Of a stretch of 64,000 bases of DNA, positions 2,288-20,515 are shown piece after piece; within the stretch, counting starts at the first letter, position 1, and the number at the start of each line of letters is the position of its first letter. The position numbers were made by a program, and so were the translations under genes. The stretch spans positions 32,001-96,000 of IMG/VR virus record IMGVR_UViG_3300001525_000014. One strand, given 5' to 3'. The notes below the pieces were generated by a model. That model saw only the letters and a program-made list of their open reading frames with translations, was not told the DNA's origin and did not search any database. The stretch is from a virus.

Positions 2288-5200
2288 TTATTTATTACAG
2301 TCGTCCTATCTTCTCTTTCCGAGTTCTTTAAGGTCGTCTTTTATTTCCTATTCATTCTTTACTTTATAATCATTTTTAGAGAACGTCTTCTAATATACAG
2401 CTTTTATTGCATTTGCAGCTTTTAGGGCTTTATCGTATCCTACATACCCTTCTCTATCAACCCACTACCCGTTCTTGTTAACTTTGTAGTTTTGAATATT
2501 TCTAGTACCAACACCAGCAAACGATTTTGTTAATATTGGTGTATCTTCAACTTCAAATTTACCTGTTGATGAATTATACTAATACCAGCTCTCTGTTTTA
2601 AGATCATATACATGTACAGGTTTACCCTGTTTGATGCCAACCTAAACAGCCATATTAGTACCACCTTCTACAGCTTTCTGCGAACTAGTTATATTCGCTA
2701 CAGCAAATACACCATCAGACTTATCTACCTAATAGAAGTCTCTTGCAAGTAATTCTCCACCAATATTATAAGGCAACTCTCTTCCAGTTAACTGCTTTAT
2801 CTACTCTCTTGCATAGTTAGATTGTTCGTGAGTAATTGGGAGAGGCTTAACGTTTTTATCCCTGAGTGTTTTAGACATATTCTGGTTATCTATAGGTCTA
2901 AAATGGTTTATTTTTGTTAAGCCAAACGTTCTACCTATAACATCCCAATAAGTATCGCCACCATAAGCTCCTCCAGAATTAATTGTGTAATCTTGTGGAT
3001 TACCCTGCTATTTGTTGTACAAAGATATAGATTTAAGATAATCCCTCAATGTGGTCATGTATCGATTTGGCTCTAATGCTTTCAATTCAAATTCATTAGC
3101 TTCATGCCAATGGTAATCGCCCCAGTCTGTTCCTGTAATAAAATATTTGCCATCTTTGTATTTAATAGCATATTTAGAAGACCCATACCTTTTGGTTATG
3201 GTATATCTTAAAACGTTATCTCCATCAATTGTGCTATTTTCAAAATCCTTTAACTTATCAGGCTTTACTGGAAATTTATCATACTCTATTTTCTACTCTG
3301 GCTCTGTTCTAGTAAACGCATTATCCTTTAATGATCCATCCTCATTATAATAATTAAGCATCTTATCAGAATTATGATGAGCATAACAATACATACAACT
3401 AGATGCACAGTTAGAATTATACTTTAGAACATCAACTTTGCCACCATAGCAGGTACAAAGTTTACGCTGTTTATTATTATCTTCACCTTTATCTTCTATA
3501 TGCGTACCAAGGATGTTATTAACCTAATCTACAGACAAGCATCCCTATTTGCTTATTCCAGGAATTACTCCAGGTTCAGCACAAGTAGATAATTTAACTC
3601 CATACTTATTTGCTATCTATAACATCTTTTCGGATACACCTTTGACTATTTCTGGTTTAGCATTAGGCTTAAACTCTCCATTAGGAAGCTTCTCATACCC
3701 ATTCTTTTCGTAGTCATAGCCTAAGTTTTTCATAAATATAGAAGTGGTGCGATAATAGTCCATTACTGAGAATTTAACGTTCTTTATTCCTAATTCGGAT
3801 GCTCGCTTAATAAGTGCTTCAACATCTTTAATCTTTGTAACACCAGGAATAATAGGATCAATTCTCAATGTAACCATCTTAGGATCAAGACCTTGCTTAA
3901 TAAACTTTCCTACACGCTCAATCATATCCTACCACTTCATAACACCAGGCTCCCACTTAGTAGCACCAAGAGTAGTTATACTAAAGTGAATAATCTTAGG
4001 CTTTTGAATACTAAGAATTCTTCTCATTGGAAGACCATCATGCTTAGTTATAATATACATAGCATCCATATCGTTAGCAGTAAGAGTGTTTCCTCTATAA
4101 TCCTTCACTGTTGTTTTACCACTAAAGAAACCCTCAAGCTGTTTAGCAAAGAAAGCCGGGTCAGTCTTTTCGGAAGCCACAGCTATTCTCGGCTATTTAT
4201 CATTACCAGTAAATGGGTGTAATGCAAGAATTTCTTCATTAGTAAGAATTGTGTTAGGAGAACTTATGGTCTTCTAAGCATGCTAGAATGATACATTGTG
4301 CGCATTCTTGTGGTCAGTACTTACATATTTAGCCAAATCAACGGTCTTGTCATATAAGTATTTAAATAGCTGAGGCGTACGTTGTTCTGTAATCTAAGAA
4401 ATCTTGCCATTAGATAAACCAGTAGAAGGTAAATATATCTTTCTGTATTTACCCGTATCCCACTCATCCTTAATAGCCTAGAATTCGGCATCTATAACCT
4501 TTTTAAACTCTTCTATATCAGAATCATTCCATCTACCAGCATCTCTCGTTCTACCAGTTAAGGGATCGTACCAATGCTGTGTAGACACAGGCATCGCGTT
4601 ATCCATTCCTCTGATTATAGCAGCTGTAGTATTGGGGAACATCTTGCCAAGTCCATATGTCCTAGCATACTTACTGTCATTACTTATCGGGTTTTTACCA
4701 GATGTCCTGTTCGTGTTGTCACCAAATACATATAATACATCAGGATTATCATTAACCTCCTATCTAGTCCAATTACCTGGATGATATTCAATCTTTCGTT
4801 CAGCTGATTTAGGTAAAGATGGATTTTCTATATCACCAGTATAAGGATTAGCTACAGGAACACTAGATATAACAATAGCGGTCTTTCTTGGTCTAGTTAG
4901 AGCTGTATAAATAAGCTCAGACTTCTCTTGATTTGATGTAGCTGATGTGCCCATTATATCCTTCTCGTCTACTACAACTATATCGTATGTAGAACCCTAA
5001 GATTTATGGGCTGTTATAGCATAACCAAAGTCAATGTCTGCATAACGTCCTTTATACTCCCAGAATTCTTGCCAAGCTTGCCTCTTTAATATTCTATTGG
5101 TCTATCTCTTAGCCTTAGAAGCAAGTTCCTATAGCTTCTGATTATATAGATCAATATCGTTTCTAGAAACAACCTATATAACACAATCTTTTTGTTCATT

Positions 5201-20200: not shown

Positions 20201-20515
20201 ACTAAATCCTCTATTGTTGTCTAGATAGCTTTCCGCCTTCTTTAACCTGTCGTAATATTTAGACGCAGCCTTCGTTTCCTGATCTTCTTTGTTAAGTGAT
20301 TTAGACACATTTACATAATCTTTGTATCCCTTGTTAATAATAGACTAGGTCGGAGATGTACTCTGATATTTAGCTAAATTGCTTCTAAATTTATTTGTTA
20401 CCCTACTGTACGGCGTACTATTATCACGTCTTATGTATCTAATAGGGTCATAAGTACTGCCTTCTGATCCCCAAGGGATTATATTAGGGCTTACGTTCTT
20501 TGTTTTATTTGCCAT
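2288..20515 (-). CDS. Giant 6075-aa ORF: crAss-type virion RNA polymerase polyprotein. It has a long N-terminal region, a zincin HExxH motif, an RNAP DFDID motif, and C-terminal SF1 helicase, DUF1848-like and SLOG-like domains.
   Basis: All 25 real track ORFs from 3617..3925 to 18542..18889 share one frame (start mod 3 = 2). I scanned every gap in that frame and found about 124 in-frame TAG and zero TAA/TGA between ATG 20515 and TAA 2288-2290. An in-frame TAA at 20540-20542 closes the frame upstream. It contains GSDFDIDKL, resembling the phi14:2 gp66 DFDID catalytic motif. Confidence 0.8.
2400..3000 (-). other. SLOG/DprA/LOG-like Rossmann domain (GGAYGGD ... EGGTNMA ... GKPVHV) at the C-terminus of the giant ORF.
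   Basis: INSGGAYGGDTYWDVIG is at 2954-2974, and the later ...AVEGGTNMAVQVGIKQGKPVHVYD fits the GGAxGxD...GGT...GKPv pattern. Assignment is from motif memory only. Confidence 0.35.
3365..4190 (-). other. DUF1848-like domain (putative Fe-S cluster; C-terminal CxC...C...CMYCYAHHN) embedded in the giant ORF.
   Basis: Track ORFs 3929..4180 and 3617..3925, plus the downstream translation ...STCAEPG...LCTCYGGKVDVLKYNSNCASSCMYCYAHHN. The layout matches my memory of DUF1848 (TCAE...CGC...C..GC.YCYA). Confidence 0.55.
4760..6240 (-). other. SF1 (RecD/Dda-like) helicase domain embedded in the giant ORF.
   Basis: Motifs seen: Walker A GKAGTGKTT (6137-6163), motif II VIDEASM (about 5881-5900), motif III FLGDIGQIQP, motif V AITAHKS[TAG]GSTYD (TAG at 4997-4999), and motif VI LIYTALTRPRKTAIVI (track ORF 4760..4954). 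Confidence 0.8.
8735..8749 (-). other. DFDID: putative metal-binding aspartate motif of the crAss-like two-barrel virion RNA polymerase.
   Basis: The minus-strand translation of 8700-8800 gives ...LPREFTKVTGSDFDIDKLYLASL... The DxDxD form matches what I recall for the phi14:2 gp66 / crAssphage RNAP family. Confidence 0.65.
13520..13534 (-). other. HEAFH (HExxH) zincin-type metalloprotease motif inside the giant ORF.
   Basis: Track ORF 13331..13687 reads ...DGVQYHEAFHRVLELL..., so the motif is seen directly. Protease function is inferred from the motif only. Confidence 0.4.

Follow-up and report, generated by a model that had tools for sequence, protein, structure and literature searches.

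A single late gene of a TAG-recoded Suoliviridae phage very probably encodes a giant RNA polymerase fusion protein

In a stretch of 64,000 nucleotides of viral DNA (IMG/VR record IMGVR_UViG_3300001525_000014, positions 32,001 to 96,000; this whole stretch is called the window below), one reading frame on the minus strand, 2288..20515, stays open as soon as TAG is read as a sense codon. This locus raises the question of whether such a frame is a single gene and what kind of protein it specifies. A previous, sequence-only reading of the window had taken the frame for a virion RNA polymerase polyprotein of exceptional size. According to our analysis, it is very likely one late gene of a TAG-to-Gln recoded Suoliviridae phage, and its product the giant RNA polymerase fusion protein of this family.

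The reverse complement of positions 2288-20515 comprises 18228 nt and runs from an ATG (20515) through 6075 sense codons to a TAA (2288), in agreement with the earlier count. A codon scan detected 124 in-frame TAG codons and neither TAA nor TGA, so that no stop codon had been missed. With TAG translated as Gln, the predicted product has 6075 amino acids (aa) and a mass of approximately 689 kDa. From stop to stop, the open frame spans positions 2288-20539. Given that TAA and TGA together are expected at 5.6% of codons from the base composition of the strand, the chance of such an open frame is about 1e-153. Both junctions of the gene are compact. At the 5′ end, the TAA of the upstream gene is followed by TAATT and the ATG at 20515; at the 3′ end, the TAA (2290-2288) is followed by TTATT and the ATG of the next gene at 2282. 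Only with TAG as a sense codon does coding sequence fill the entire window: under the standard code, open reading frames (ORFs) of 150 aa or more account for 24% of its length, compared to approximately 108%, all on the minus strand, when TAG is translated.

The opposite assumption would be that TAG terminates translation, either always or early in infection, and that the giant frame is an artefact in a region that in fact gives rise to several genes or a series of short products. Read with the standard code, the stretches across the region are indeed all shorter than 200 codons, and no suppressor tRNA was found in the window. However, the 124 TAG codons, on average one per 49 codons, correspond to the random expectation for a sense codon (127 from base composition), indicating the usage of a sense codon free of constraint. 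Homology is continuous across all 124 TAGs, the portal and TerL genes of the window likewise need read-through, and standard-code relatives (cr118_1, cr1_1 and the IMG/VR loci L064, L087 and L088) possess the same single ORF with zero TAG. The meaning of the codon was deduced from an alignment of the giant protein with seven relatives, in which the residues opposite the TAG sites were read from the standard-code phages cr118_1 and cr1_1, whose genes contain no in-frame TAG. Gln was the commonest residue at these positions (13%, compared to a background of 3% and to 10.6% at genuine CAA/CAG sites) and gave the best likelihood fit, with a margin of 6.4 nats over the next residue, Arg. Metaproteomics has confirmed the reassignment of TAG to Gln in one Suoliviridae genome (PMC10136315). 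Termination at TAG is thus effectively already refuted and retains hardly any probability. TAG is a sense codon, for which the alignment makes Gln the most likely meaning.

All genes listed for the window contain TAG, with the exception of the gene for the major capsid protein (MCP; 49534-51069, 511 aa) and a 376-aa ORF (45311-46441), for which approximately 10 and 7.5 TAG codons are expected, respectively. In the genes neighbouring these two, TAG makes up about 2% of the codons. Possibly, the recoded codon is avoided in those genes that are expressed most strongly.

A second objection concerns the assembly. The window sequence is known from assembly alone, and a related public record, that of cr124_1, does hold assembly and linearisation artefacts. 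That several phage genes or strains were joined into a chimera, and that the giant frame owes its contiguity to this, is nevertheless extremely improbable. From Met1 onward, the gene is collinear with four independent IMG/VR contigs, which come from at least two datasets (3300045988 and 3300013947), match it at 82-88% nucleotide identity and share its MAN(K/R)... start. Three of the four continue to the next gene, one stops at the contig edge (aa 5416). Contig 3300045988_048366 has a 5672-aa ORF with the same ...RRQDDCNK end and lacks aa 5424-5838, a cassette encoding a DUF1848 domain. In 3300045988_021123, a frameshift inside DUF1848 leaves 5627 aa and a second stop-to-stop frame of 705 codons; 3300013947_000026 is split by an intron and is devoid of DUF1848, and in 3300045988_019695 the giant ORF is cut by the contig end. 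The cassette indel, the one frameshift and the one intron are the sole differences of the four contigs from the window in this respect. The copy of the window is the longest of the five, as all four modules of its C-terminal tail are intact and in frame. This collinearity argues against an assembly artefact, and so does the order of the modules, which matches that of the RefSeq relatives. The end ...ARCN of 3300045988_021123 was considered as a retained form of the C-terminal cysteine tag described below, but turned out to be an out-of-frame read past the frameshift.

The identity of the protein can be recognized from its middle third. The module at approximately aa 2500-4700 (6416..13018, minus strand) contains the motif DFDID at aa 3923-3927 (window 8735-8749), close to residue 3920 where it had been noticed before. 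A BLAST alignment with gp66, the RNA polymerase of Cellulophaga phage phi14:2, spans this motif (gp66 1361-DFDID-1365; E 6e-17), so that DFDID coincides with the catalytic motif of gp66. In the best 300 residues of a pairwise alignment, about 27% are identical to gp66. A profile of the family matches gp66 at residues 180-921, 945-1693, 1718-1841 and 1919-2136, with a full E-value of 2.7e-94, and also matches residues 183-2360 of crAss001 gp50. When a profile of six sequences was searched against PDB, the only match was 6VR4, the structure of gp66 (E 6e-59). It covers residues 1125-1682, in which TGSDFDIDK is identical, and takes in the Connector, DFDID, the bridge helix and the trigger loop. 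For gp66, the limits of the Connector, the bridge helix and the trigger loop were given as 1095-1238, 1529-1559 and 1598-1636, respectively (bioRxiv 10.1101/2020.03.07.982082). The six-sequence profile was required to find 6VR4, which a phmmer search with the polymerase region against PDB missed. Pfam and PHROG searches with the single sequence gave no match in aa 1-4700, and a word-indexed protein search returned five and one matches, all of them TAG-bounded fragments of close relatives. The alignments identify the module as a full-length two-barrel DNA-dependent RNA polymerase of the phi14:2 gp66 type, in which both double-psi beta-barrel folds are predicted to lie in one chain. The assignment to the RNA polymerases of crAss-like phages proposed by the sequence-only reading is borne out by the aligned DFDID, by profile homology along gp66 and by 6VR4 as the sole PDB match. 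While gp66 is a stand-alone protein of 2180 aa flanked by the separate genes g067 and g065, its counterpart here forms the middle third of a 6075-aa chain.

The implied exceptional size of this fusion did not stand up to comparison. In RefSeq, Suoliviridae phages already have single ORFs of this kind that range from 4328 to 6386 aa, one of them larger than that of the window: cr272_1 gp23 (YP_010113476.1; 6386 aa), cr130_1 gp79 (YP_010113266.1; 5801 aa), cr118_1 gp14 (4946 aa), cr1_1 gp076 (4551 aa), cr52_1 gp34 (4464 aa) and cr113_1 gp38 (4328 aa), each annotated as a single CDS. Most of these phages use TAG as sense, as does the window. Since cr118_1 and cr1_1 use the standard code and have no TAG in the gene, the giant fusion holds irrespective of whether TAG is assumed to be recoded. 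The RefSeq giants are 26-37% identical to the window protein and share with it C-terminal accessory enzymes, the C-terminal cysteine and a separate gp65/gp49-like gene that comes next. Collinearity with cr130_1 gp79 extends over aa 157-4698 of the window protein, at 32% identity. The spacing between HExxH and DFDxD is 1595 aa in the window and 1444-1619 aa in seven relatives, and each RefSeq giant has a single HExxH upstream of DFDxD. Likewise, 78 of the 80 IMG/VR loci retrieved by the polymerase core hold an ORF around GSDFDID. Where it is not limited by the flank or the contig end, this ORF is mostly about 4000-5160 aa long, with two shorter exceptions (3073 and 1884 aa), and ORFs that the flank truncates reach at least 5714 aa. 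Several of the 80 loci, including the three mentioned above, use the standard code. In a review, RNA polymerase genes of "up to ~6000 aa" were described as a hallmark (PMC10136315).

Two apparent exceptions among the RefSeq phages are an artefact and an intron, respectively. cr124_1 seemed to have a split gene (with the RNA polymerase as a separate 2626-aa ORF, gp01), which was ruled out since the record holds an untrimmed terminal overlap of 55 nt. After trimming, there is a single ORF of 5198 aa. The record in question, NC_055899.1, was linearised within the giant gene with the 55-nt assembly overlap kept, and for this reason the gene is annotated as a 2626-aa "DNA helicase" next to 7.7 kb of unannotated sequence. 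In cr131_1, an insertion of approximately 0.9 kb (L003 17188-18100) splits the gene exactly between the D and FDID codons. It gives Rfam group I intron matches just under the gathering score and contains a 242-aa endonuclease ORF (gp49). An insertion at the same D/FDID site, with Rfam group I intron matches also just under the gathering score, is present in the IMG/VR locus L015 (10851-11748). The window copy is intron-free, and an Rfam scan of the window yielded nothing at the gathering threshold. Judged from these sequences, a single giant ORF is the rule in Suoliviridae, and the window protein is neither unique nor the largest. This kind of protein has already been described; new are the divergent sequence and the combination of the tail modules.

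In other crAss-like phages, the same block is divided differently. phi14:2 has g067, g066 (RNA polymerase) and g065 as separate genes, and crAss001 has gp47 (with an HExxH near its C-terminus), gp50 (RNA polymerase) and gp49. In p-crAssphage, the annotation of gp45 reads "RNAP associated protein fused to zincin protease", that of gp44 "RNAP catalytic subunit fused to unknown RNAP subunit". In the window, the N-terminal part without a known domain, the HExxH region, the polymerase and the enzymes are fused and the downstream gene is separate. Alignment with the orthologues places the boundary between the gp47-like and the gp66-like part at approximately aa 2400-2500: the C-terminal YHEAFH region of crAss001 gp47 matches aa 2255-2380, gp50 matches the polymerase module and gp49 the downstream gene. 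The C-terminal part of p-crAssphage gp44 matches the profile of the downstream protein as well. Hence, p-crAssphage fuses the polymerase to the downstream protein, whereas Suoliviridae fuse the HExxH protein to the polymerase, and since the boundaries fall differently, different lineages have fused different neighbours of the same block. The downstream gene (1..2282, minus strand; at least 760 aa) is cut at the window edge. Its orthologues are cr130_1 gp80, crAss001 gp49 and phi14:2 gp65. It has an HExxH of its own at aa 232, which aligns with "ilHElvHA" of phi14:2 gp65, cr130_1 gp80 and others. The zincin discussed in the literature is this HExxH of the downstream gene, which is distinct from the one inside the giant ORF.

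The N-terminal region of the giant protein (aa 1-2254; 13754..20515, minus strand) contains no known domain. Searches of Pfam, PHROG and PDB gave no match to it, neither internal repeats nor a transmembrane segment were found, and a separate PDB search with the N-terminal 2227 aa was negative as well. It is homologous only to the giants of other Oafivirinae, from approximately aa 157-330 onward. By contrast, crAss001 gp47, p-crAssphage gp45 and phi14:2 g067 showed no detectable similarity to the N-terminal 2250 aa. The adjoining HExxH region (aa 2255-2380; 13376..13753, minus strand) is homologous to residues 2069-2211 of crAss001 gp47, which form the C-terminus of that protein (profile E 6.6e-23). 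The motif reported near residue 2330 is YHEAFH at aa 2327-2332, of which HEAFH (aa 2328-2332) occupies window positions 13520-13534, and it is invariant among the relatives. A Glu located 35 residues after the second His is invariant, too; in the alignment, H114, E115, H118 and E153 are conserved in all eight sequences, including crAss001 gp47. For none of the eight members was a Pfam peptidase family found at E<=1, nor did a profile of the region match PDB. An AlphaFold single-sequence model of a 134-aa TAG-free stretch around the motif reached a pLDDT of 53 and is not interpretable. The label "zincin" for this region is therefore putative and follows from the motif.

At its other end, the protein terminates in ...RRQDDCNK with Cys 6073 (2297..2299, minus strand), a residue conserved at the C-terminus of the giant homologues examined. 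Those with a complete 3′ end, from 78 IMG/VR loci and eight RefSeq entries (L012-L091; L006, L011, L097), were surveyed for it. Every one has a single Cys at or near the C-terminus, 0-6 residues from the end with one exception at nine residues. It is kept whatever domain precedes it, even though the proteins are poor in Cys (24 of 6075 residues here, about two of 4551 in cr1_1). A C-terminal Cys is also found in phi14:2 gp66 (..QECK) and gp67 (..NTIC), crAss001 gp47 (..RCNS) and p-crAssphage gp45 (..FSCM), while it is absent from proteins of the gp65/gp49 type.

These data bear on the question of whether the 6075-aa chain is a true polyprotein, that is, a precursor from which a gp47-like protein, the accessory enzymes and the RNA polymerase are cut free. 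The cutter might be its own HExxH domain or the HExxH protein next door, and release might take place at maturation or after ejection. The idea of a single huge polyprotein that is likely cleaved was published in 2020 (bioRxiv 10.1101/2020.03.07.982082), and several observations agree with it. The modules are separate genes elsewhere (phi14:2 g067/g066/g065, crAss001 gp47/gp50/gp49, p-crAssphage gp45/gp44), the junction at about aa 2400-2500 coincides with the end of crAss001 gp47 and the start of gp66/gp50, and HExxH together with its downstream Glu is invariant across the eight sequences. In addition, gp66 was crystallised in a self-inhibited form that might need activation (bioRxiv 10.1101/2020.03.07.982082). 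On the other hand, cleavage is a published hypothesis only, for all crAss-like phages, and the HExxH region has neither a peptidase-family match in Pfam nor a PDB match, even by profile, with a structural model that is unusable. The preprint itself assigns the zincin to the gp65 orthologues, here the separate downstream gene, and proposes digestion of peptidoglycan as its function (bioRxiv 10.1101/2020.03.07.982082). Furthermore, the fusion has retained a conserved Cys tag only once, at its extreme C-terminus, as would suit a single functional chain. The virion RNA polymerase (vRNAP) of phage N4, a T7-like single-subunit enzyme, works uncleaved. This protein of about 3500 aa illustrates the concept proposed for the window protein, namely a very large polymerase that is packed into the virion and injected for transcription of the first genes (PMC13434306). 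Another virion-packed giant is the two-barrel RNA polymerase of P23-45 (5002 aa) (PMC10770324); it is fused to the tape measure protein, that of the window to a tail of helicase, DprA and DUF1848. Taken together, cleavage of the window protein is possible but rather doubtful, and the giant fusion protein described above is the preferred interpretation.

The extra enzyme domains anticipated at the C-terminus could be matched to four modules on the minus strand. The first is a helicase of superfamily SF1B (RecD2/Dda/Pif1-like) at aa 4756-5216 (4868..6250). It contains a Walker A motif (GKAGTGKT, window 6140-6163) and a Walker B-like DEAS, and matched AAA_30 (49.7 bits, cut-off 27) and UvrD_C_2 (40.3 bits, cut-off 27.4) in Pfam as well as the Dda-like PHROG 325 (E 4e-49). 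A Pfam domain, DUF7831, which adjoins a NADAR domain in relatives, follows at aa 5247-5389 (4349..4777). DUF1848 at aa 5462-5712 (3380..4132) matched PF08902 with 82.9 bits (cut-off 30.5), and its C-terminal CASSCMYC is a radical-SAM-type CX3CX2C motif (window 3386-3409). This domain also matches the PADLOC model RTasDUF1848 (E 7.5e-28), which describes a DUF1848 protein that partners a defence reverse transcriptase. The last module is a DprA-like domain (Rossmann/SLOG-type, GGAYGGD) at aa 5840-6045 (2381..2998), recognized by PHROG and by homology. A PDB search with the tail gave no match.

Tails differ considerably between relatives. That of cr272_1 comprises NADAR, DUF7831, DUF1848 and DprA, where the window has helicase, DUF7831, DUF1848 and DprA. 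In cr130_1 the order is DprA, NADAR, DUF7831; cr131_1 has NADAR and DUF7831, cr118_1 only the helicase and cr113_1 only DprA, and nothing recognisable was found in the tails of cr52_1, cr1_1 and cr124_1. Differences exist even between close relatives, as the DUF1848 cassette (window 3002-4246, aa 5424-5838) is deleted in two of them and frameshifted in a third (L012, L013, L015), although the rest of the gene has 82-88% nucleotide identity. Enzymes of this tail would resemble proteins of the type of P1 DarB, a capsid-delivered anti-restriction protein, in being present at DNA entry. Phage NADAR enzymes, which are fused in the relatives and missing in the window protein, counter DarT (PMC11257639). 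This counter-defence activity, together with presence and absence of the DUF1848 cassette, suggests exchangeable enzymes that are delivered with the polymerase. Tentatively, the tail may be regarded as a swappable "injection toolbox" (NADAR, SF1B helicase, DUF7831, DUF1848, DprA-like) whose contents are swapped between close relatives and might disarm host defences at DNA entry, while the invariant C-terminal Cys might be a shared packaging or anchoring tag upstream of which cassettes are inserted. We consider this a minor possibility at present.

By analogy with phi14:2 gp66 and with crAss001 gp47, gp49 and gp50, the giant protein would be made late and packed in few copies into the cargo zone of the capsid. 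The three crAss001 proteins were detected in virions (PMC10172136), and together they amount to 694 kDa, compared to 689 kDa of the single chain of the window. A capsid of similar kind would probably hold few copies. The protein would then leave through the tail in a partly unfolded state, before the DNA or together with it, and refold in the host. phi14:2 gp66 transcribes the early genes of that phage; likewise, the refolded polymerase might transcribe early genes in a rifampicin-resistant manner, independently of the host polymerase. It is conceivable that the variable C-terminal enzymes ride along and are present at DNA entry, where they would probably protect or process the incoming genome, that is, act in counter-defence or DNA handling.

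Several points weigh against this interpretation. No Suoliviridae phage has been cultured (PMC10136315), and packaging, ejection and activity are therefore extrapolated across approximately 26% identity. A chain of 689 kDa must be threaded through the tail, and the DUF1848 enzyme, a predicted Fe-S protein, would have to reassemble its cluster once it has been ejected. A part of the tail enzymes in counter-defence is tentatively proposed by analogy. Finally, ARAGORN detected no tRNA gene in the 64-kb window and hence no CUA suppressor tRNA in a late region that is fully TAG-recoded, and no tRNA with a CUA anticodon was found in the scanned fragments of relatives. A tRNA-Gln of cr130_1 was examined as a candidate suppressor and dismissed due to its UUG anticodon.

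The giant ORF leaves the knowledge of crAss-like phages unchanged. With it, a hallmark protein family of the phages most abundant in the human gut gains one more divergent sequence, whose tail modules are combined in a new way. Mainly, it calls for caution in annotation: under the standard code such genes go unseen, and linearisation, introns or frameshifts readily split them. It is also raw material for two questions, the cleavage of giant fusions and the role of the variable enzymes delivered with the polymerase.

The phage itself is a member of the Crassvirales, Suoliviridae, Oafivirinae-like and TAG-to-Gln recoded. Matches obtained by tblastn with the polymerase region came from crAss-like phages only. 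TerL is 92% identical to that of cr124_1 and cr7_1 and 80-84% identical to that of cr131_1, cr130_1 and cr272_1; cr124_1, cr131_1, cr130_1 and cr272_1 are filed as Oafivirinae (Suoliviridae) in their own records. A megablast search with the giant gene against 50,697 phage records gave no match, which means that the genome of the window is absent from this collection. The genes for MCP (position given above), portal (54733-57204) and TerL (57208-59271), all on the minus strand, matched crAss families of PHROG, and the structural module is arranged in the order TerL, portal, MCP, tail, cargo, giant gene, gp65-like gene. Two plus-strand ORFs under the standard code are probably spurious, one of 308 aa (49837-50760) lying antisense within the MCP gene and one of 257 aa (35953-36723) antisense within a gene for a 2497-aa protein.

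Upstream of the giant gene, three genes encoding 600, 534 and 267 aa (20521..24717, minus strand) are syntenic with cr124_1 gp10, gp11 and gp12, and are located where crAss001 has its cargo proteins gp45/gp46. The product of the 267-aa ORF (23914-24717, minus strand) is rich in Gly, Ala and Ser; its identity to cr124_1 gp12, by annotation a glycine-zipper "peptidoglycan-associated protein", is 69%. This ORF overlaps its neighbours by approximately 10-17 nt if counted from the first ATG, and by about 30-90 nt from stop to stop. The identity to cr124_1 falls stepwise along the genome. It is 92% for TerL and 69% for a 1558-aa tail protein; the 534-aa and 600-aa proteins are 89% and 80% identical, respectively, in their N-terminal parts, while the giant protein and the product of the next gene reach only 22-28%. 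This drop suggests either a swap of the polymerase block or extreme divergence.

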